From NCBI GenBank assembly GCA_963734155.1, contig CAVTGG010000014.1:309841-373840 (forward strand): DNA of 64,000 bases, in the 5' to 3' direction. The number at the start of each line of letters is the position of its first letter. The stretch's first letter is position 1. Position numbers and translations under genes: made by a program. The notes under the pieces are model-generated. The model made no database searches. It saw nothing but the letters and a program-made list of their open reading frames with translations, and was not told the DNA's origin. The DNA is from an uncultured Acidobacteriota bacterium (GTDB lineage Bacteria; Acidobacteriota; Thermoanaerobaculia; Gp7-AA8). Below, in pieces: positions 5,301 through 57,050 of the stretch.

Positions 5301-5660
5301 TCAAACAAATGCGCCAGCGCCGCCGCCAGATCGGCGTTCACTCCCGAATGCACCGGCGAGGTTTGAATGATCGTGCTGCGCGGAGCGACGAGCCAGTGAA
5401 AGCGCTCGCTCTGCGACAAGCAGGCCGATCGGTCCGGCGTCGGGGCCGCCGGCACAGATGCGCGGGATCGAATCGAGATAGCTTTGCACGACATCGCGAT
5501 CGAGCGACGGGGCGAGTGCGCTGAGGCGCGCTGCGTCGAGTGCGATGCGGGCGTCGAGGAAACGCGCCGTGCGGCTGAAGAGAATCACGCCCGCGTTGAC
5601 GAACTCACCGCGCTCCACGCGGGGGACGATGCGCACGACGGCGTAGTCAAACGCGTGCAC
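5301..5660 (-). CDS. DUF3037 domain protein (partner of HipA-like kinase)
   Basis: The conserved DUF3037 N-terminus is FDYAVVRIVPRVERGEFVNAGVILF. The start is a probable GTG at 5660, 14 nt inside the kinase gene end. An upstream ATG at 5732 is an alternative. Confidence 0.55.
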   Translation of the reverse strand: MHAFDYAVVRIVPRVERGEFVNAGVILFSRTARFLDARIALDAARLSALAPSLDRDVVQSYLDSIPRICAGGPDAGPIGLLVAERALSLARRSAQHDHSNLAGAFGSERRSGGGAGAFV

Positions 5661-6405
5661 GAATCGCCTCCTCCAGCCATGCGCGCGGCGACGCGAGGCG
5701 TCGCACGAGATAGTCGGCGTATGGCATCGCATCCTCTTCGAGCCACGAATCCGGAATCAGTTGCACGACTCGCTCGATCGCGTCGCGCGTGAGCAGCGCG
5801 CTCAGCTCTTCATCGACTTCGCGCAGCATCGTCGCCCAACGCAACAGCACATGATCGCGGATCTGCGGAAACGCGCTCGTCGCGCGCGACGGATCGCCGT
5901 TCCAGGAGTGATGCACGATCAGCGTCGCGCCGTGGTCGATCAGCCAGAGATCGCGATGCCAGATGAGGAGATTCGTGTTCTTCGCCGTGCGGTCGACATT
6001 CGTCACCAGCGCGTCGAGCCAGACGATGGACGAGGCGAGCCGCGGCTGGCCGGCGATCGCGGCGGCGCGCTCGACGAGAGGATCGAACGTGATCGATCCC
6101 GGGAGATAGTCGAGGGCGAGATTCAGTCCGACGCTCTTCCGCAGCAGATCCTGGATCTCGGGATCGGGCTCCGTCTTCGCCATCCGCTCATCGACCATGG
6201 CGAAGACGATCTCCGGCACGCGCAGTCCGAGGAGCCGGGCCAACTCGCCCGAGACCAGCTCGGCGATCAGCGCCTTCACTCCCTGCCCCGCGCCGCGGAA
6301 CTTGAGGACGTACGTGCCGTCGTCATCGCCTTCGACGATGGCCGGCAGCGAGCCTCCTTCGCGAAGCGGCGTCACATATTCGGTGCAAGTGATGGTGCGA
6401 AGCAT
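5647..6405 (-). CDS. HipA-like Ser/Thr kinase (HipA_C catalytic core only)
   Basis: The catalytic-loop equivalent is LVTNVDRTAKNTN (HipA has NxDDHxKN). A DFG-like LIDHGATL and a Gly-rich N-terminus are present. The start was chosen at the internal ATG 6405, so the long ORF extension upstream is treated as non-coding. Confidence 0.6.
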   Translation of the reverse strand: MLRTITCTEYVTPLREGGSLPAIVEGDDDGTYVLKFRGAGQGVKALIAELVSGELARLLGLRVPEIVFAMVDERMAKTEPDPEIQDLLRKSVGLNLALDYLPGSITFDPLVERAAAIAGQPRLASSIVWLDALVTNVDRTAKNTNLLIWHRDLWLIDHGATLIVHHSWNGDPSRATSAFPQIRDHVLLRWATMLREVDEELSALLTRDAIERVVQLIPDSWLEEDAMPYADYLVRRLASPRAWLEEAIRARV

Positions 6406-6888
6406 GCGAGGAGGGGATTCTCTCGTAAAATGGCGACGATGCGAACGCGCGCGCTCCTCACCTTTCTCGTGCTTCTGATGGTCGCCCTCGGCGCATCTGC
6501 GCAAAGCGACAGTGAATTCGGCCGCGCTTCCAGCGGCGCGATCAGCGCGATCACGAAAGGACCGAGCCAGTTCTCCGGCACGCTCTCGCTGTCGCTGGGC
6601 AGTGGTACCGGCTACGGCGCTTCCTTCGGAGGCGAAGCGATCAAGGATCGGCTCTGGGTGTTCGCCGCGGCGGCTGTTTTGCCTCAGATCCGGTTCTCGG
6701 AAACGAAGCTCGAAGATGCGAAAGCGACAGCGCTGCCGGTCGATTGGGCGAACGTGACCGCGTCGTTCAGTCAGCTGCGTTCGAACGACGTGTTGTTGCC
6801 GATCGTCGTTCCTCTCGCTGCGCTCGACGACGATGCTCTCCGATCGCATGATGATGAACATCAGCTTTTCGCGATCGGGGCGGTAGTG

Positions 6889-6964
6889 TGGAGCCGATGA
6901 CCGGACTCGAACCGGTGACCTGCTGATTACGAATCAGCTGCTCTACCAACTGAGCTACATCGGC
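6889..6964 (-). tRNA. tRNA-Thr (anticodon CGT)
   Basis: A manual cloverleaf fits: acceptor GCCGATG/CATCGGC, D-arm GCTCAGTTGGTAGAGC, anticodon stem GCTGA/TCAGC with loop TTCGTAA, T-arm ACCGGTTCGAGTCCGGT, discriminator T plus an encoded CCA. Confidence 0.85.
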
Positions 6965-7082
6965 GCTTAGGACAGGCAAGCCTGCCTGTCCGTCATCGAC
7001 GTCCCGGCAGGAACCACATGAACAGCGCGGGCGCGCATTCTATTCACCCCGGGCGGGGGTGTCGAGTAGGATGTGATCCAAC

Positions 7083-7159
7083 GCGCCCTTAGCTCAGCTG
7101 GATAGAGCATCAGACTTCGGATCTGAGGGTCGGGGGTTCGAATCCCTCAGGGCGCGCCA
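7083..7159 (+). tRNA. tRNA-Arg (anticodon TCG)
   Basis: The acceptor is GCGCCCT/AGGGCGC. The anticodon stem is TCAGA/TCTGA with loop CTTCGGA. The T-loop is TTCGAAT. An encoded CCA is present. Confidence 0.85.
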
Positions 7160-7168
7160 ACCTCCACT

Positions 7169-8605
7169 TTGTCGAAATCCGAGCGCATTCTTTTCTGGTC
7201 GTTGGCGGCAGCCTCGCTCGTGCTGCGCGCGCTCTCGTTTTTTCGCTATCGCTTCGACTCCGACGAGCAGCAGCATCTGCATGTCGCGTGGGCGTGGACG
7301 GACGGGCTCGTGCAGTACCGCGACGTCTTCGACAATCACCTGCCGCTCTTTCATCTGCTGACCGCGCCGCTGGTGGCGCTGTTCGGCGAGCGCGCGGACA
7401 TCCTCCTCTGGATGCGCCTGCCGATGCTCGCGTTGTTCGTGGTCGTGCTTTGGGCGACGTACAAGATTTCCGAGAGCGCGTGGGCGGTGGTGCTGTTGTC
7501 GCTCTTTCCGCCGTTCTTTCTCAAGTCGCTCGAGTTCCGCAACGACAACTTGTGGACGGCGCTCTGGATGCTCGCGATTCTCGGCGTGATGCGGCAATGG
7601 CGGCCGTTCGTGATCGGCCTTCTTCTCGGCGGCGCGTTCGCGGCGTCGATCAAGACCGTCGTGCTGCTGGTCGCGTTCGTGATCGCGTTCCCGAAACAGA
7701 AATGGCTGCAGATCCTCGCCGGCTTCCTCGTCATCCCGGCCGCGCTCGCGATCTACTTCGCGAGCGCCGGCGCGTTGGATGAGCTGCTGTACTGCAACTT
7801 CACCTTCAACGCGCACTTTGCGATGACGCGCAAGGGCCTTTGGGTTCTGCGCGTGCTCTTCCCGATTCTGCTCGCCTGCGTCCTCTGGCTCGCCAAACGT
7901 TTTCGCCCGCATGCGTTCGCGATCCTGATCGCGGTCTACGCGATCACGCTCCTGCCCCTCGGCGTTCCGATCTCGCCCCGCGATTTCCTCCCGCTCATGC
8001 CGCTGCTGGCGATCCTGTTCGCCGCGAATGCCACGCACCTGCAACGAGTGCTCGTTGCCGGCGTCTGCATCCTTGCGCTGTTCAAGTACGCGGACGGGTT
8101 CAAGGATCGAACGGAGTGGCACGTCACGATGCTGCATCAGGCGCTGCGACTCTCGCATCCCGGCGAGCTGCTGATGGACATCAAGGGCGAGACGATCTTT
8201 CGCCGGCGGCCGTTCTACTACGTCTTCGAGAACCTCACCCGCGCGCAGATGGATCGCGGGATCATCCGCGACACCGTGGCCGCGGACGTGATCCGCACGC
8301 GCACACACGTCGCGCAGGCGGACGGGCCGATGTGGCCGCCGCGGGCGCGCGCGTTTCTCAGCGAAAACTTTCTCGACATGGGACGGTTGCGTGCCTCGGG
8401 GCAATGGTTGAAGCCAGATGGCTCGTTCACCATCGCGGTTCCGGGCGAATACGTGATCGTGAGCGAAAACGGGGCAATCGGTCCTGCACGCGAGTACGCG
8501 GCAGGCACGTATCGCATCGCAATCAGAAAGAAGCTCGCGGTGATGTGGGCGCCGGCGTTCCGGCGCGGACACTCACCGTTCCATCTGCGCGATCGCGAGT
8601 TCTAA
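7169..8605 (+). CDS. GT-C fold integral-membrane glycosyltransferase (ArnT/PMT-like)
   Basis: About 11 predicted TM helices. The N-terminal loop with conserved acidic residues (FRYRFDSDEQQHLHVAWAW) is typical of the ArnT / dolichyl-phosphate-mannose transferase family. Confidence 0.55.
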   Translation: MSKSERILFWSLAAASLVLRALSFFRYRFDSDEQQHLHVAWAWTDGLVQYRDVFDNHLPLFHLLTAPLVALFGERADILLWMRLPMLALFVVVLWATYKISESAWAVVLLSLFPPFFLKSLEFRNDNLWTALWMLAILGVMRQWRPFVIGLLLGGAFAASIKTVVLLVAFVIAFPKQKWLQILAGFLVIPAALAIYFASAGALDELLYCNFTFNAHFAMTRKGLWVLRVLFPILLACVLWLAKRFRPHAFAILIAVYAITLLPLGVPISPRDFLPLMPLLAILFAANATHLQRVLVAGVCILALFKYADGFKDRTEWHVTMLHQALRLSHPGELLMDIKGETIFRRRPFYYVFENLTRAQMDRGIIRDTVAADVIRTRTHVAQADGPMWPPRARAFLSENFLDMGRLRASGQWLKPDGSFTIAVPGEYVIVSENGAIGPAREYAAGTYRIAIRKKLAVMWAPAFRRGHSPFHLRDREF

Positions 8606-45193: not shown

Positions 45194-46054
45194 ATGGCAG
45201 TACCGACAGACGTCATCCCCCGCCGCCCGACCTTGCTGCTGATTCTCGTACTGGCTGGACTCTTCGTCCTCATGAGCGTCAGCAGCCAGACTCGCTACGT
45301 CGGCGAGACGCGCACGATGTTCGAGCGCACGGTCATGACCATCTTCTCGCCCGTGCCGAAGCTCGTGCACTGGGCCGGCGGCTCGCTGCAGGACATGTAT
45401 CACGGCTACGTCGACATGCGCGGCTCGGTCAACGAGAACCTCGAGCTGCGCCGCAAGGTCGCGTCGCTCACCACCGAGAACCTCAAGCTGCGGCAATCGG
45501 AAGGCGATCTGCGCCGGCTGCGCAGCCTCCTCGCCTACTCCGAACAATTCACGATGTCGACGTCGATGGCGCAGACGATCATGCTCGACACCGCCGGCCG
45601 CTTCAAATCAATCATCATCGACCGCGGCTCGTCCGGCGGCGTGGAAGTGAATGATGTCATCGCCAACGCCAACGGACTCGTCGGCCGCGTCGTGCTGACG
45701 ACGAAGGACCTCGCCAAGGTCCAGCTCGTGACCGACAACAACTGCTCGGTCGGCGCGCTGATCGAGCGGACGCGGCGGCAGGGCGTCGTTCGCGGCAACG
45801 GCTCCACCGCGCTGCAGATGGGAGACATCCCGTCGCTCGCGGACGTCGCGCCGGGGGACCGCGTGCTCACCGCCGGCATCGACGGCGTCTATCCGCGCGG
45901 CATTCCCCTCGGCCTCGTCACGAAGGCGGAGCCGGGGCAGTCGCTGTTCAAGACCGTGACCGTGAAGCCGTCGGTCGACTTCGGCGCGATCGAGGAAGTG
46001 ATCGTGATTCACACGCGCAAAGTGCCGCCCGGGATCGTGAGGTACACACCTTGA
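45194..46054 (+). CDS. mreC: rod shape-determining protein MreC
   Basis: It has an N-terminal TM helix, a coiled coil and the MreC beta-domains. Confidence 0.85.
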   Translation: MAVPTDVIPRRPTLLLILVLAGLFVLMSVSSQTRYVGETRTMFERTVMTIFSPVPKLVHWAGGSLQDMYHGYVDMRGSVNENLELRRKVASLTTENLKLRQSEGDLRRLRSLLAYSEQFTMSTSMAQTIMLDTAGRFKSIIIDRGSSGGVEVNDVIANANGLVGRVVLTTKDLAKVQLVTDNNCSVGALIERTRRQGVVRGNGSTALQMGDIPSLADVAPGDRVLTAGIDGVYPRGIPLGLVTKAEPGQSLFKTVTVKPSVDFGAIEEVIVIHTRKVPPGIVRYTP

Positions 46055-46558
46055 GGTGGTTGCGGTTCGCCATTGGCCTCCTGATCGCGCTGACGCTGCA
46101 CTCGCTGCTCGACAGCTTCTATCCGAACGCGCTCGCGTTCTTCAATCCGTACATCATCCTCGTCGCCTACTACTCGATGGGCGGCAACATCGTCGGCGCG
46201 ATCTTCGCCGGCATCGCCGCCGGGCTTCGTGCAGGACGCGTTTTCGAACGCGATGTTCGGCCTGCATGCATTCTCGATGACGTTCTGCGCATACATCATC
46301 GCCTCGATCAACGCCCGTCTGATGCTCCGCGGCACGCTCGCGTTCGGCGCCTGCCTCGGCGGTGCGGTGATCGTGAACGAGTTCGTGATCTACATCCTCG
46401 TGAACATTCTCGTGAAGCAGCGCATCGAGATGTTCGAGCAGGCGTTGTTCGTGAAGACGATCTTCACGCTGCTGTTCGGAATGCTGGTGTATCAGCTGTT
46501 GACACTGTTCTTGCGCGAGGAGCCGATCGAGGCAACGAGACGGCCGGCCGGGTGGTGA
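46051..46558 (+). CDS. mreD: rod shape-determining protein MreD (apparent frameshift near 46225)
   Basis: The N-terminal TM helices are in the 46051 frame. The conserved segment ...QDAFSNAMFGLHAF... continues in the 46229 frame. Confidence 0.7.
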
Positions 46559-50253: not shown

Positions 50254-50440
50254 CAAAACAGTGAACACGAGAAACAGCGGGACGTGGCGCGCGTCTTAAG
50301 AAGTATGAACATGCCGCATCGCAGAACCCCAGTGATGCAAAGTCCCGCCTGAAATCCCGCCTTGCCGCCGGCGCAAAAAGGCTGCGCGCCGGCGGCCTCC
50401 CGCCTTTCCTGCAAGCCGCCAGCGGTATTCTGGTCCACGG

Positions 50441-53400
50441 ATGCCGAAGGTCTATATCTCATCGACGTTCAAGGATCTCCGCGAGCATCGTCAGGTCGCG
50501 ATCCATACGCTCGATCGATTGGGGTACTCGACGCGTGCGATGGAGAAGTACTTCGCCTCGGACGAACGGCCGCTCGATCTTTGCTTGGCCGATGTCGCGC
50601 AGTGCGACCTTTACGTCGGGATCTTCGCGTGGCGCTACGGGCACATCCCCTCGGAAGGCAATCCCGAAGGTCAGTCGATTACCGAATGCGAATTTCGTGA
50701 GGCAGTGCGTCTCCGGATTCCCTGCCTGATCTTTCTCAGCGACGAGAGTGATCGCTGGCTCGTGGACAGTGCGAACGATCGCGCACAGATCGCACGACTG
50801 CGTGAGGAGCTCGGCAAAACATGCGCATCCTTTGACACACCCGAGAAACTCGGGCTGGAGATCAGCGTTGCGGTCGCCAACTGGGAGCGCAACCCCGACT
50901 TTCGGCGCTACCTGCAGGCGTTGGCGACCGAGTTTGCCGACCTTCCGGAGCTGCCGGGACATACGAGAAACCTGGCGATCAGCGAAATCATGACGATCGC
51001 CGTCAACCTGAATACCACCGCAGCGCGTGAGCAACCCTCGATCGTTCCCCTGCCGCAGGCCGTCGCAGAACAACGCGCCCTGCTCGTCGTTGGCGAGGGA
51101 GGAATCGGCAAGTCGACAGCGCTGCGATTTCTGACATATCACCATGCACGCTCGCGCCTGGAGGCCGAAGCCAACGGCGCGGACCTGAAGACGACGCTGA
51201 TCCCCATCTACATCCAGCTGCGCGGCGAGCGAACGGATCTTCGAAAGCAGTTATGGACGGCGCTGCAGCGGCCCGATTTTCATTGCAGCCGCGAGCTCTT
51301 CGATCGATGGCTTGCTGAACAGCCGTTCCTCCTGCTCGTCGACCGGCTCGAGGACGTAAATGTGAGATCGATCCTCGAAGAGCTCGCCGAATTGCTGCAG
51401 CATGCAGCACATGCGCGGATCGTGGTGGCCAGTCGACCACATCCGGCACTCAAGGATTCACCCTGGTCTCACGCGGCGCTTCAACTTCCAAGCGATGCCC
51501 GGCTTGCGGCGTTCTTCAGGGCGCTGCTCGGAGCGCAACGTGGCGGCGAGCTGTTCGACATGCTCGCACATCACGGTCTCCTCGAGCCGTTTCGCCGGCC
51601 GCTGTTCGCGCGTCTCCTCGCGCTGAGCTCACTGGAGTTGCTGCAACAGGAGCGCCTCACGCCGGCTTCGGTATTCCAGGACGTCATCGAACGTCGATTT
51701 CTGACTGAGTGGGAACGACCCGATGATGCACACAACCAGCATGCGATCATGCAGGACTTTCTTGCGCGTCTTGCTCACCGCATGATCGCGGCGAACACCG
51801 ACAGCGTCTCAAGCGATGAGGCACTGCTCGACGCGCGCAGCACGATCACCGGGCGCGGTCTCCTCCCGGACGTGCGCACACTGCAGAACGTTATGGACTG
51901 GACGATGCGGCACGGGCTGCTGACACACGTCGACGGGCAGCTCCAGTTCTGGCATGCGACGTTCCGCGATTACTTTGCAGCACTCTGGCTCGAGCGGCAT
52001 GCGAACCTGTTCACCGTTTACCGCCGCAGCTGGAGCCCACGATGGCACGAATGCCTGGCCTACTACTTCGGTTTGCTCCAGGGCCGGCAACTGCAGCGAG
52101 CAGTGCGCGTTCTGCTGCTCGGCCTCCGCGTGAACATCGCGATCCTGCATTTCAAGCCGTCCCCGGACTCGTCAGGGCGGCTGCTGCTCGTATTGCGATG
52201 CCTGGTGCAAGCCGGCACCGGCGGCAGGCGATGGCACAATGACGTTCTGCGCCGGCTTCCCACGACATTCAGCTACTTCTACCTGAGCGGCGCACCGACC
52301 CCAATCACGTATTCCTATCGACGCGACGGTTATGACCCGCATCATTATCTTTGCGATCTGATCGGGCAATTACGGTCGCCGGAAGGCTTTGCGTACCTCG
52401 ACAGGGTGCAAGCGGATCTCGATGTTGTCGCACCGGGACTATTGCACAGCCCCGATCATCAGGTCATCGAACGCCTGGCCCAGGCACTCATCGACCAGCC
52501 TGACGATGAACGCCACCGGTCGGGCAACGAAGTGCTGAGTCATCTGCTTCTCCGGTCGCGTGATCCTCGTTGTTTTGCCGCGCTTCGTCGCGTCGCCTGT
52601 GACCTGGGTGCAACACCGAGAGCAAAACTTCTGGGCTTACTGGCGCACACCATGATCTGGTATCGCCACGATATCGATCTCCGACAGGTACTCGGCGATG
52701 AATGGGGCGAACTGCTCATCGGATTCACGTTGCATGATGACGACGCGAAGGTGCGGACTGCGGCGGTAACGTTCCTTCGAGAGCTCGGCCCCACTCCGGA
52801 ATATCCAAGCGAATCCCTGGCCCCACGGGCTCGTCAAGCGTTCCTGCATGCGTTGACGGACACGAATCCGACGATACGTGACACGCGCCCTTGCGGCATT
52901 TCGCATTCCGGAGCTCGAGCATCACCTGGAGATCCTCCAGCGATTCCTCGCCGAAGACGATCTCGACGTCGTGTTCCGTGCGCTCTATCACTTCCGTCAT
53001 TCTGCCGAGCCCCGTCGCTTTTGCGGGGCGACGCTGAAGGTTCTTCGCAGGTACTCGACCGATGCCACAAGGCCTTTAGCCGCAGTTTTTTACAAAGGCT
53101 TGTGCGGCGAGGAGCATGCTGCCGCCGATCTGCCGCGCCGATCAGTGGCCTTTCTCATGAGCAGCGTGTTCTGTGGAAAGTACAAAGGACTCACGCTGTA
53201 CGCCATCCTTGCGTTGGGCACTCTCGCGGGCGAGTGGGCAGTGCCGTTCCTGACGGCGGTGTTGAGGAGTGAGGCATGGGAGGACACACGCTCCGCCGCC
53301 CTCGGGATCCTGGTCAAGCTTCTCGGCGTCCAGGCAGGCGACCTGGTGGCTGAGATGCTCGCCGACCCGTCGGCGCTGATGCGCGGAAGCGCCGCGGCCG

Positions 53401-53612
53401 ACTGCTTCATCCGTGACTTCGGGAACGATTTCCCCCCGCGCGTTGGCGCGCTCCTGTTTCGGCTCGTGACGGATGAGCATGAATACGCCTCACGCTACGC
53501 GACCTATGCCCTGCAGAAATGGGGGTATCTCGCAAAGGACTGGTATCCACACGAGGGCAATCCGATCTATCTCGGCCCACCACCTCCGGACACGCCGGAG
53601 TTGCAGGGCTGA
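50441..53612 (+). CDS. STAND NTPase: DUF4062-like N-terminal domain, NACHT-like P-loop ATPase, C-terminal HEAT/PBS-lyase repeats (apparent frameshift near 52885)
   Basis: The N-terminus MPKVYISSTFKDLREHRQVAI...CDLYVGIFAWRYGH matches the DUF4062 pattern. The Walker A is VVGEGGIGKST and the Walker B is LLLVDRLED. At least five HEAT-like repeats follow (DDDAKVRTAAVTFLRELG etc.). Confidence 0.6.
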
Positions 53613-53633
53613 CGTTACAATCCGCGCCAGCAC

Positions 53634-55176
53634 ATGCAGCCAGCGCAGACGGTCCTCGTTCTCGATTTCGGATCGCAATTCACCCAACTGATCGCCCGGC
53701 GGATTCGCGACCATCGCGTCTACTCGGTCGTGCATCCGTGCGATCTCGCTCCCGACAAAATCCGCGAGCTCGCGCCGACGGCGATCATCCTCAGCGGCGG
53801 GCCGCAGTCGGTGTACGCCGAGAGTGCGCCGTACTGCTCGCGCGAAGTGTTCGAGCTCGGCGTGCCGATCCTCGGCATCTGCTACGGCATGCAGCTCACC
53901 GCGTACTTCCTCGGCGGCAACGTCGAGCCGGTGCTCGAGCGCGAATACGGGCGCGCGGAAATCGACGTCATCCGCGAGTCGCCGCTGTTCACCTCCACGC
54001 CGCCGCATCAGCGCGTATGGGCCAGTCACGGCGACAGCATCCTCGCGCCGCCGCCCGGCTTCGAGGTCACGGCGTCGTCCTCGAGCGCGCCGATCGCCGC
54101 GTTCGAAAACCGCGAGCGCGACTGCTACGGGATTCAGTTTCATCCCGAAGTCACGCACACCGAGGCCGGCGGGCAGATCCTGAAAAATTTTCTGTTCGAC
54201 ATCGCCAAATGCGAGCCGACGTGGGACCTCGGCGACTTTCGCAAGCGAAAAGTCGACGAGATCCGCAAGCAGGTCGGCGATCGCCATGTCATCGCCGCGG
54301 TCAGCGGCGGCGTCGACTCCTCCGTCGCTGCGCTGCTCGTCGGCGAAGCAATCGGCGATCAACTCACCGCGATCTTCGTCGACAACGGCGTGCTGCGAAA
54401 ACACGAAGCGATGCAGGTCGTCTCGCGCCTCTCCGAAGGCCTCGGCATGCACATCGTCGCCGTCGACGCACGCGAGCGCTTCTACGAGAAGCTCGCCGGC
54501 ATCGAAGAGCCGGAGACGAAGCGCAAGCGCATCGGCAACGAGTTCATCGCCATCTTCGAGGAAGAAGCGAAGCGGATTCCGAACGTCGAGTTCCTCGTGC
54601 AGGGCACGCTCTACCCCGACGTCATCGAGTCGGTCTCGATCAAAGGACCGTCCTCGGTGATCAAGACCCATCACAACGTCGGCGGGCTGCCGGAGAAGAT
54701 GGGGCTGAAGCTCATCGAGCCGGTGCGCGAGCTGTTCAAGGACGAAGTCCGCCAACTCGGCGATCGAGCTCGGACTCGAAGAGGAGTTCGTCTGGCGGCA
54801 TCCGTTCCCCGGGCCCGGCCTCGCCGTCCGTATCCTCGGCGAAGTCAACGCCGCGCGCGTAGAGATCCTGCAGAACGCGGACGAGATCGTGATCGACGAG
54901 ATCCGCAAAGCCGGCCTGTATCGCGAGATTTCGCAAGCCTTCGCTGTCCTTTTGCCGGTGCGGAGCGTCGGCGTCATGGGCGACGAGCGCACCTACGAGA
55001 ATGTGCTTGCAATCAGGGCAGTCACGACCACGGACTTCATGACCGCGGACTGGTACCGGATGCCGCACGACCTGCTCGATCGCATGGCGCGGCGGATCGT
55101 GAACGAGGTTCGCGGCGTCAATCGCGTCGTCTACGACGTCTCGTCGAAACCTCCCAGCACGATCGAATGGGAATGA
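53634..55176 (+). CDS. guaA: GMP synthase (glutamine-hydrolysing) (apparent frameshift near 54775)
   Basis: The GATase Cys is in GICYGMQ. The ATP-PPase motif is SGGVDSSV. The C-terminal dimerisation domain ...[20 protein letters not shown]... is in a second frame. Confidence 0.85.
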
Positions 55177-55340: not shown

Positions 55341-57050
55341 ATGGTGGTAAATCGGTCCCCCATCTTCAGGTTGATTGTCGCCGCAGTTCTGATCGCGGTC
55401 CCGATGGCGGCGTTCGCAGCGCCCGCCGGGAAAGCGGTCGGCGGCGGTTCGTACATTGAATGGCAGTTGTCGGCCGGATATGAGAAGGTCATTCTCACCA
55501 TTTCCGACCCGACGGGTGAGGTCTCCACGCGTGAGTACGCGGCCGGCAAACCGGTCTCGCTCAGCCTGAAAGACCTGCCGACTGCCGGCGACGGCAGCTA
55601 CACCTATCAGCTGCTGCTCGTGCCGAAGGTTTCGGCGGCGTTGCAGGCGCAGTTGTCGAAGGCGCGCGAAGCCGGAAACGACGCCGCGGCCCGCGCTCTG
55701 CTCCGATCGGCAGGCCTCGCCGAGCCGAATGTGGTGAGCGGCGCGTTCCTCGTCACGAACGGCTCGATCGTCGCGCCGGATCGCGCGGAAGAAGGCATCG
55801 GCGGCGGAACGGTGCAGGCGAACTCGATCCGCGAAGAAGGTCCCGCGAAGCTGGGCGGCGGAACGTCCTCGACGGCTCGCCCGGGCACGCCGGTCGTCAA
55901 CGACCAGGTCATTCCTGACGATCTCATCGTGCAGGGCAGCGGCTGCTTCGGCTTCGACTGCGTGAACAACGAGTCGTTCGGCTTCGACACGATCCGTCTC
56001 AAAGAGAACAACCTCCGCATCAAGGCCGAGGACACGAGCACCGGCAGCTTCCCGACCAACGATTGGCAGCTGACGTTCAACGACTCCGCGAGCGGCGGCT
56101 CCAGCAAGTTCTCGGTGGAAGACATCACCGGATCGCGGGTTCCGTTCACGATCACGGCCGGCGCCGCGACGAACTCGATGTTCGTCGACAGCACGGGCCG
56201 CCTCGGCCTCCGCACCTCCACTCCGGTCCTCGATCTCCACATCAACACCAGCAACACGCCGGCGATCCGCCTCGAGCAGAACAACTCGGGCGGCTTCACG
56301 GCGCAGACCTGGGACATCGGTGCGAACGAAGCGAACTTCTTCGTGCGCGACGTGACCGGCGGCTCGAAGCTCTCGTTCCGCATTCGTCCGGGAGCGCCGA
56401 CGAGCTCGATCGACATCTCCTCGGATGGTGACGTCGGCATCGGTACGGCTTCGCCGAGCGCGGCGCTGCACGTCCTCGACAGCACCAGCGCTGCTTCCGA
56501 TATCGTGCTCGCTGAGAACAACAACGAGGCCCGCATCTCGATCAAGAACAACGGCACGTCTCAGAAGTACATCCTCGGCGTGAACAACACCAACCCGGGT
56601 CTGTTCTTCATCTCGAAGGACGCCGGCGGCGGCACGATCGTCGAAGTCAACCAGCGTCTCGACGGCGGCGGCGTTGCCTCGGTGAAAGTCAACGGCAGCG
56701 TGCAGGCCACGAACGTGGTGTTCAGTTCTTCGCGCGAGCTGAAGAACGAGATCGACCTCGTCGACGGCAAAGAGACGCTTGCGCGTCTGACCGCGATGCC
56801 GATCGCGCACTGGTCGCTCAAGACCGACGAATCCGCGACGAAGCACGTCGGCCCGATGGCCGAGGACTTCTATGCGGCGTTCGGAGTCGGCAGAGACAAC
56901 AAGACCATCTCCGTCACCGACGCGAACGGCGTCGCGTTCTCTGCGATTCAGGGTCTCGCGCAGACTCTGAAGGAGAAGGACGAAGAGCTCACCCAGCTGA
57001 AAGCGCGCATGGCCGAGCTCGAGAAGCTCGTCAAGGCGCAGCAGCAGTAA
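55341..57050 (+). CDS. secreted fibre/beta-helix protein with C-terminal peptidase-S74 intramolecular-chaperone (autoproteolytic tail-fibre chaperone) domain
   Basis: A GGAGGAGG SD and a signal peptide are present. The C-terminal block SSRELKNEIDLVDGKETLARLTAMPIAHWSLKTDESATKHVGPMAEDFYAAFGVG...ELTQLKARMAELEKL is characteristic of the S74 chaperone domain. Confidence 0.65.
   Translation: MVVNRSPIFRLIVAAVLIAVPMAAFAAPAGKAVGGGSYIEWQLSAGYEKVILTISDPTGEVSTREYAAGKPVSLSLKDLPTAGDGSYTYQLLLVPKVSAALQAQLSKAREAGNDAAARALLRSAGLAEPNVVSGAFLVTNGSIVAPDRAEEGIGGGTVQANSIREEGPAKLGGGTSSTARPGTPVVNDQVIPDDLIVQGSGCFGFDCVNNESFGFDTIRLKENNLRIKAEDTSTGSFPTNDWQLTFNDSASGGSSKFSVEDITGSRVPFTITAGAATNSMFVDSTGRLGLRTSTPVLDLHINTSNTPAIRLEQNNSGGFTAQTWDIGANEANFFVRDVTGGSKLSFRIRPGAPTSSIDISSDGDVGIGTASPSAALHVLDSTSAASDIVLAENNNEARISIKNNGTSQKYILGVNNTNPGLFFISKDAGGGTIVEVNQRLDGGGVASVKVNGSVQATNVVFSSSRELKNEIDLVDGKETLARLTAMPIAHWSLKTDESATKHVGPMAEDFYAAFGVGRDNKTISVTDANGVAFSAIQGLAQTLKEKDEELTQLKARMAELEKLVKAQQQ

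Follow-up and report, generated by a model that had tools for sequence, protein, structure and literature searches.

What is the function of a single large gene that stands alone between the genes for the DNA-binding protein HU and for GuaA in an uncultured bacterium of the phylum Acidobacteriota? The gene occupies positions 50441 to 53612 of a 64,000-nucleotide stretch of contig CAVTGG010000014.1 (assembly GCA_963734155.1), the whole of which is referred to here as the window; an earlier note, made from the sequence alone, had read its product as a solo STAND NTPase with a DUF4062-like N-terminus and C-terminal HEAT repeats, and as a candidate defence or signalling protein. From the present analysis, the most likely reading is that this one gene makes up an anti-phage suicide system, uncharacterised as such, of the kind already known as bacterial NLR-like or Avs-type. 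Its parts are the following:

50441..53612, plus strand: whole gene, DUF4062-NACHT-HEAT protein of 1,056 amino acids once one extra base is deleted
50441..50890, plus strand: DUF4062/TIR-like domain, predicted NADase effector (amino acids 1-150; Pfam match at amino acids 3-88)
50690..50692, plus strand: codon of E84, predicted catalytic glutamate in the motif SITECEF, placed by alignment to the KpSwz chain
51038..51475, plus strand: NACHT-like P-loop nucleotide-binding domain (amino acids ~200-345)
51092-51118, plus strand: Walker A motif, GEGGIGKST (amino acids 218-226)
51329-51355, plus strand: Walker B motif, LLLVDRLED (amino acids 297-305)
51416-51439, plus strand: RIVVASRP motif, which includes R332
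51476..52006, plus strand: helical domain 1 and winged-helix domain (amino acids ~346-522)
51590-51607, plus strand: FRRPLF, invariant (amino acids 384-389)
51947-51979, plus strand: FWH..FRDYFAA, invariant, including the winged-helix histidine H505 (amino acids 503-513)
52007..53522, plus strand: C-terminal alpha-solenoid of HEAT-type repeats, presumed ligand sensor (amino acids ~523-1027)
52879..52890, plus strand: single-base insertion splitting the gene, best fit at 52879-52883, alternative in the CCC run at 52888-52890

With regard to the mechanism, we favour with moderate confidence an NLR-like abortive-infection system encoded by this single gene, in which HEAT repeats would sense, the NACHT-like module would oligomerise and an NADase with E84 at its centre would deplete nicotinamide adenine dinucleotide (NAD+). 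In the scheme that we infer for the trigger, the oligomerisation, the NADase activity of the window protein and the resulting phage phenotype, the protein at rest would be held monomeric, and its DUF4062 domain inactive, by the HEAT solenoid together with the NACHT-like module in its ADP-bound form. A trigger, most probably a conserved phage protein, would bind the HEAT sensor, and its binding would lead to nucleotide exchange and NACHT-driven oligomerisation; the TIR-like DUF4062 domains gathered in this way would hydrolyse NAD+, with ADP-ribose and nicotinamide as the products and E84 as the catalytic residue, and the loss of NAD+ would halt the infected cell before the release of phage progeny.

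The strings that the earlier note had quoted are all present in the protein, i.e., MPKVYISSTFKDLREHRQVAI (amino acids 1-21), DLYVGIFAWRYGH (56-68), GEGGIGKST (218-226) and LLLVDRLED (297-305), and the N-terminal DUF4062 domain that it had named was recovered with PF13271, which matches amino acids 3-88 along its whole length, from position 1 to position 82 of 82 (86.8 bits, cutoff 24.7; E=1.1e-24). The statement in the same note that this domain has no known biochemical activity is outdated. In 2026 it was demonstrated that DUF4062 is a TIR-like NADase that converts NAD+ into ADP-ribose and nicotinamide, and that it is the executioner of the Swarozyc system (Osinski et al., bioRxiv 10.64898/2026.05.01.722283). 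In that work, the catalytic residue of the Swarozyc protein KpSwz was identified as E97 and the phage portal as its activator; the DUF4062 domain of human TEP1 was also found to be an active NADase (E1008), and in TEP1, NWD1, NWD2 and NPHP3 alike this domain adjoins a NACHT ATPase (bioRxiv 10.64898/2026.05.01.722283). TEP1-TIR has a specific activity that increases with concentration, from which the authors inferred an oligomerisation-driven activation (Osinski et al. or Ibarra-Chavez et al., 2026). Evangelion (Eva01-04) is another single-gene DUF4062 defence family, and the report that describes it also notes bacterial TEP1-like proteins with a DUF4062-NACHT-WD40 architecture (Ibarra-Chavez et al., bioRxiv 10.64898/2026.06.25.731849). 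The activity of DUF4062 has been established only in 2026, for the NTPase-less Swarozyc and Evangelion proteins and for human TEP1 (bioRxiv 10.64898/2026.05.01.722283, 10.64898/2026.06.25.731849).

The window protein matches two of these solved chains by sequence alone, namely the DUF4062 chain of KpSwz (10wc_A, E=4e-5) and the TIR chain of the TEP1 crystal structure (11gz_A, E=2e-5). E84, in the stretch SITECEF that corresponds to the region S-x-T-E-x-E-[YFW], stands opposite the alanine at chain position 84 of 10wc_A, an alanine that we equate with the E97A change in the published cryo-EM construct. The glutamate is invariant in 32 aligned DUF4062 domains and is kept in every DUF4062-bearing member of the family; M34 and E35 are also invariant in the 32 domains, and Y37, A39, R43, P44 and L45 are nearly so. 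These seven residues lie between the second strand and the next helix, that is, at the position of the BB loop of TIR domains. The fold of the domain is that of a flavodoxin-like TIR or nucleoside 2-deoxyribosyltransferase, with five parallel strands, and its model superposes on the TIR domains of RPS4 and SARM1. By analogy with the characterised enzymes, the window protein would hydrolyse NAD+, yielding ADP-ribose and nicotinamide. As a separate observation, three short DUF4062 proteins (P0036, P0037 and P0038) are fused to Macro (PF01661), PF05419 or PF00413, the last a metallopeptidase family; Macro is a domain that binds or processes ADP-ribose, and its fusion to DUF4062 fits an enzyme that makes ADP-ribose.

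The central module shows the succession of nucleotide-binding domain, helical domain 1 and winged-helix domain, with the conserved histidine of the last, and its nearest solved structures are those of NACHT NLRs; NLRC4 was also matched in a profile search of the PDB sequences (E=2e-3). In the family alignment, the NTPase residues G218, G221, G223, K224, D301 and R332 are invariant, and the motifs are intact in the window protein. Pfam AAA_22 scores just over its cutoff (29.5 bits). Its structure and most of its motifs thus make the NTPase NACHT-like, and we do not claim that the window sequence belongs to the NACHT clade in the strict sense. A special kinship with the NPHP3_N/TEP1 type was considered and dropped, as the window protein has no match to the NPHP3_N Pfam model.

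The C-terminal half is covered in part by Pfam HEAT_2 (amino acids 763-847, 36.7 bits against a cutoff of 27.7), with HEAT and HEAT_PBS also detected, and a profile search of PDB sequences matched designed HEAT proteins (alphaRep) over amino acids 930-1042 (E=5e-15). The AlphaFold2 model of the full-length protein (predicted local distance difference test, pLDDT, 85.8; predicted template-modelling score, pTM, 0.68) consists of an alpha/beta part at amino acids 1-150, a P-loop, helical and winged-helix part at about 200-522, and an all-helical part at about 523-1027; because of this last part, the figure of at least five HEAT-type repeats given before is reasonable. Compared with the PDB by Foldseek, the model has NOD2 as its top match (8.5e-11), followed by NLRC4, NLRP3 and NAIP5 with E values of up to 1e-6, and after the NLRs by the HEAT proteins PP2A-A, SF3B1, CAND1 and alphaRep. 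The Pfam domains and the model together bear out the three-part layout, in which a STAND NTPase stands between an effector and a repeat sensor. Conservation decreases along the protein, from 56-81% identity in the effector (among DUF4062-bearing members) to 37-73% in the NTPase and 25-47% in the sensor (65-69% for P0001, the nearest homologue). A gradient of this kind, in which the effector is better conserved than the NTPase and the NTPase better than the sensor, is typical of NLR and Avs proteins.

An exhaustive search of 1.84 billion representative proteins with a profile (hidden Markov model) of the family gave 774 matches at E<=1e-30, some 35 of which cover the NACHT and HEAT chassis in one stretch. 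Many of these align only from profile position ~150-200 onwards, and therefore carry a different N-terminus on the chassis. The following alternatives were assigned with Pfam:

P0049: canonical TIR_2 N-terminus (E=2.4e-20)
P0052: HNH_2 N-terminus (28 bits, above cutoff)
P0071 and P0082: Trypsin_2 N-terminus (above cutoff)
P0088: protein kinase (Pkinase) N-terminus (above cutoff)
P0060: SMEK_N N-terminus (E=1e-38)
P0075: divergent DUF4062 N-terminus (36.4 bits, above cutoff)
P0003: Cap4-like nuclease N-terminus (22.2 bits, below cutoff; a lead only)

P0011 and P0063 look HNH-like by eye and were not counted, given that Pfam reports nothing for the former and 15.6 bits for the latter. Bacterial NLR-like and Avs conflict systems are recognised by just such a swapping of destructive effectors on a common chassis of sensor and switch, and the exchange of DUF4062 with a canonical TIR domain argues that the two are functionally equivalent on this chassis.

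In the scan of a genome collection, homologues were found only in Paludibaculum fermentans and in Bryobacterales F-183, both Acidobacteriota, with 33-38% identity. Four of seven homologue contexts have defence or mobile-element neighbours (the window, L001 and L021 are the three that have none). In the contig of Bryobacterales F-183 (L005), a gene at 5386-8517 for a 1,043-residue ABC-type ATPase lies directly upstream of the homologue and matches the PADLOC models for Ppl, AriA and GajA (E=5e-26); this cultured acidobacterium may thus have a small defence island at the locus. In L022 the neighbours are a CARF6-like kinase-AAA protein, a CARF protein and a type II methyltransferase; in L004 there is an HNH/restriction endonuclease-like gene; and the gene of P0006 is accompanied by a relaxase, TraG, PemK and further NACHT and NB-ARC genes, i.e., by a conjugative element. 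The swapping of N-terminal domains on the same chassis and the defence genes beside part of the homologues reinforce the defence reading that the earlier note had put forward. A different arrangement was observed in L021 (8001-11225), where P0010 is called as two adjacent genes of 612 amino acids (DUF4062-NTPase) and 423 amino acids (HEAT), either another frameshift artefact or a genuinely two-gene version; the genes around it are housekeeping genes, with a VapBC pair nearby.

The setting of the gene in the window is that of a recent insertion. The flanking features, together with mreD, which lies further upstream, are:

46051..46555: mreD, split by a single-base insertion near 46225 (46223-46227) relative to L019
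49984..50253, plus strand: gene for an HU/IHF-type DNA-binding protein, the left-flank core gene (Pfam Bac_DNA_binding in relatives)
50415..53612 (approximate), no strand assigned: inserted DNA of about 3.2 kb with one gene only, within the HU-guaA spacer
53634..55176, plus strand: guaA, the right-flank core gene, split by a 1-nucleotide insertion near 54760 (54758-54762)

The HU protein of the window (89 amino acids) occurs with 100% identity on many metagenome contigs, including L011-L020, and in these ten loci, all of which were read, guaA follows HU directly, 0-270 bp behind it. The gene order of the window recurs in three of the ten (L016, L017 and L019), namely mreB-mreC-mreD-PBP2-rodA-S4-HU-guaA-S74. 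This synteny upholds the solo insertion between HU and guaA that had been proposed before, and its borders can be placed by alignment: on the left, positions 50254 to ~50415 align with the HU-guaA spacers of L017 and L019, and on the right, positions 53613-53633 align with the guaA leader. At the borders, direct and inverted repeats and promoter or terminator patterns occur only at chance level, and neither a target-site duplication nor an integrase or a tRNA is present. The GC content at third codon positions is 0.70-0.73 in the NLR-like gene versus 0.83-0.90 across eight kb of neighbours, and the locus of P0001 (71% identity), on contigs of 235-336 kb, has an unrelated neighbourhood. The absence of the insertion in all ten relatives, the unrelated context of the closest homologue and the deviant codon composition point to a horizontal gain of the NLR-like gene as a single gene.

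Several observations weigh against an antiviral suicide system. Of the human DUF4062-NACHT proteins, NWD1, NWD2 and NPHP3 were without NADase activity when assayed in vitro (bioRxiv 10.64898/2026.05.01.722283), which means that the fusion of DUF4062 to NACHT guarantees neither catalysis nor an immune role. The NACHT-like P-loop claimed by the earlier note stands by structure and motifs and falls short in Pfam, where NACHT (PF05729) scores 18.4 bits in the window protein, under the cutoff of 26.7; relatives pass it (34.2 bits for the L005 protein, 34.9 for P0088), and P0004-P0007 carry precomputed matches. The published NACHT signature for Walker B is D[GAS]hDE (Kibby et al.), and the window protein reads D301-R-L-E-D, with both acidic residues kept and arginine in place of the small residue; across the family, the motif is mostly D-R-L-D-E, and D-G-I-x-D/N in two members. 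A scan of viral contigs gave no relatives, and neither the window protein nor the L005 homologue has a match in PADLOC-DB 2.0 (2023), Avs1-5 and bNACHT included, the best hit of the window protein being PDC-S60 with E=0.04; the NCBIfam scan of the window protein likewise gave no family assignment. Avs membership, for which the earlier note had made the protein a candidate, was thus not borne out by the PADLOC Avs and bNACHT models, and the resemblance to such systems is one of working and not of belonging to a named family. The neighbours in the window are core genes of cell shape and nucleotide metabolism (mreBCD, PBP2, rodA, HU, guaA) and not a defence island. Finally, the frameshift in the gene could be genuine, the extra base being not clearly in a homopolymer.

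Part of these observations would suit an NLR-like switch with a purpose other than antiviral defence, which we regard as possible but clearly less probable: NAD+-depleting dormancy or death upon stress or damage, a sensor in inter-bacterial conflict, or a DUF4062 domain acting as a non-catalytic scaffold, which may also be its state in eukaryotic NWD1 and NPHP3. The gene sits in what appears to be a housekeeping operon that runs from HU to the purine/GMP gene guaA; together with the lack of association with viral contigs and the in vitro inactivity of the three human proteins, this would agree with such a role, as would the kinase N-terminus of some chassis members, which is also compatible with signalling, and the fact that non-defence STAND clades are interspersed among defence clades (PMC13581612). 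Nevertheless, the gene was inserted at this position recently and the synteny is not a conserved one, and therefore the neighbours say little about function; the catalytic glutamate and the conserved residues of the predicted BB-loop region are kept, and the alternative N-termini are mainly destructive effectors (TIR, HNH, trypsin-like protease). Homologues, moreover, lie near restriction-, Ppl/Gabija- and CARF-type genes, and also on a conjugative element.

A different doubt concerns the state of the gene. As it stands, the sequence contains two overlapping open reading frames in different frames, ORF A (50441-53272, 943 amino acids) and ORF B (52878-53612, 244 amino acids). The earlier note had proposed a protein of ~1055 amino acids and a frameshift near 52885; the removal of a single base yields one open reading frame of 1,056 amino acids, and the extra base was placed at 52879-52883, so that amino acids 1-813 correspond to 50441-52879 and amino acids 814-1056 plus the stop codon to 52881-53612. 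In the database search and the family alignment, homologues of 1,040-1,100 amino acids are full-length, collinear and in a single frame across the junction, with the pattern R-x-R-A/S-L; the search with the joined translation found P0001 (1,059 amino acids, 71% identity) as the nearest of them. A deletion scan showed that the loss of any one base of 52879-52883 gives the 1,056-residue frame with ...NPTIR-x-RALAAF, which fits the family pattern, and that a deletion in the CCC run at 52888-52890 also mends the frame, with a poorer match to the pattern. In the DNA alignment with the locus of P0001 (L001), the window has one surplus base.

It is conceivable that the family and the mechanism are as proposed and that the gene of the window is a genuine, recently inactivated pseudogene, which we consider unlikely. 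Its product would be truncated after residue 813, followed by ~130 out-of-frame residues, and would lose the last third of the sensor. The two frames are truly out of register in the given sequence, the best-fit site of the extra base lies outside any homopolymer, and costly abortive-infection genes are often lost; P0010, too, is in two pieces (612 and 423 amino acids). However, the region after the shift is as well conserved as the one before it (identity to P0001 of 68% before and 65% after, to P0002 of 41% and 47%), and the same type of insertion is found in two housekeeping genes. In guaA, GuaA of L019 matches frame 3 up to 54761 and frame 1 thereafter (tblastn), the DNA alignment reads ctcggc[g]atcgag in the window versus ctcgg-gatcgag in L019, and one frame encodes the N-terminal 376 amino acids, another the C-terminal 138. 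With mreD and the NLR-like gene, the +1 insertions number three in ~9 kb, as would be expected of an assembly prone to errors and possibly made from long reads; a split mreD and a split guaA are hard to square with a viable free-living cell, and point to an error of reads or assembly. Core genes are also split in related long contigs, PBP2 into 250 and 414 amino acids (L017, 6498-8491) and FtsZ into 291 and 138 amino acids (L020, 13995-15289), which suggests that frameshift errors are common in such assemblies. Since insertions of this type also occur in the nearby mreD and guaA, the frameshift in the NLR-like gene is most probably a sequencing or assembly error, and the gene is therefore probably intact in the organism. 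Programmed frameshifting was rejected, as the homologues are single open reading frames and two unrelated neighbour genes carry the identical defect.

A STAND transcriptional regulator of the MalT/LuxR/AfsR type, which the earlier note had named as the outcome that would overturn its reading and to which the existence of STAND transcription factors with helical repeat sensors such as MalT and AfsR (mentioned in PMC13581612) lends some precedent, is effectively refuted, given that Pfam and NCBIfam detect no DNA-binding (helix-turn-helix, LuxR or SARP) domain at E<=1 in the protein, that the protein begins with a DUF4062 domain whose predicted active site is intact, that the AlphaFold2 model holds only TIR-like, NTPase/winged-helix and solenoid parts, and that its best structural matches are NLRs.

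Compared with known systems, the proposed abortive-infection protein shares with Swarozyc and Evangelion the N-terminal DUF4062 domain with the same catalytic glutamate (E84 here, E97 in KpSwz, E87 in Eva01), an N-terminal aromatic motif (F10 here), and the single-gene format; NAD+ depletion and abortive infection are their mode of action, and the same is proposed for the window protein. On the other hand, DUF4062 is joined in those proteins to an 'AUX' region, which is short and helical, and they lack an NTPase, whereas the window protein couples it to a STAND ATPase of NACHT-like type and to ~500 amino acids of HEAT solenoid; with this coupling, sensing and activation should follow the logic of NLRs, unlike in KpSwz, which assembles on the phage portal. 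The products expected from the window protein, by analogy with KpSwz and TEP1, are plain ADP-ribose and nicotinamide and not signalling nucleotides. The bNACHT proteins (Kibby et al. 2022/2023), Avs1-5 (Gao et al.) and Avs6+ (Nature 2026, PMC13581612) have the same tripartite layout in a single gene, the same swapping of effectors, including TIR, nucleases and proteases, and a rapidly diverging C-terminus; among bacterial NACHT proteins, HEAT is one of the sensor types and TIR one of the effectors (Kibby et al.). The window protein differs from them in its lack of a match to any PADLOC model for bNACHT or Avs, in its Walker B motif, and in its host, a soil bacterium and not one of the Enterobacteria.

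The eukaryotic proteins TEP1, NWD1, NWD2 and NPHP3, and the bacterial TEP1-like ones, are similar in having DUF4062 directly N-terminal of NACHT, with a helical domain and then repeats behind it; the repeats of the four eukaryotic proteins are of the WD40 or TPR type, with TROVE/vWA domains in addition, whereas the window protein has HEAT repeats only. Plant TIR-NLRs (RPS4, RPP1), SARM1 and Avs5 (SIR2-STAND) resemble the scheme proposed here in the oligomerisation-activated cleavage of NAD+ by an N-terminal domain, which a STAND or another oligomerisation module drives, but the window protein has DUF4062 and not a canonical TIR domain, a NACHT-like module and not NB-ARC, and HEAT and not LRR or ARM repeats.

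Proteins with the DUF4062-NACHT-HEAT architecture are not new, since they are already present in public annotation; P0022 of Paractinoplanes hotanensis has it under the name 'HEAT repeat domain-containing protein'. The gene of the window reveals no new principle. Its value lies in being a compact bacterial case in which a NACHT switch and a repeat sensor are connected to DUF4062, as in animal TEP1 and NWD1, and the replacement of DUF4062 by TIR in its sister proteins gives independent comparative support for DUF4062 as the NAD+-cleaving executioner in NLR-like receptors. It also represents a clean, scar-less insertion of one immune-type gene into a conserved housekeeping junction, outside defence islands, a location that island-based discovery pipelines would overlook. 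A more far-reaching proposal, which we put forward as doubtful, is that the small and mostly soil-metagenome family built on the NACHT-HEAT chassis may constitute unnamed Avs-type receptors whose HEAT part would recognise a new class of trigger, and that its DUF4062-NACHT members may be free-living prokaryotic counterparts of TEP1, NWD1, NWD2 and NPHP3. If this were true, the family would offer a tractable bacterial model for a NACHT switch that activates a DUF4062 NADase.

Two other features of the window deserve mention. Downstream of guaA, a plus-strand gene at 55341-57050 encodes a protein of 569 amino acids with just 44% identity to its counterpart in L019, and the proteins at this position in the relatives carry a Peptidase_S74 domain. 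Peptidase_S74 is an intramolecular-chaperone domain of phage tail fibres and endosialidases. This gene is a fast-evolving, phage-tail-like one at a conserved chromosomal position. The other feature is a pair of divergent tRNA genes at 6892-6964 (minus strand) and 7083-7156 (plus strand), which are the only Rfam matches at the gathering threshold in the 64-kb window.

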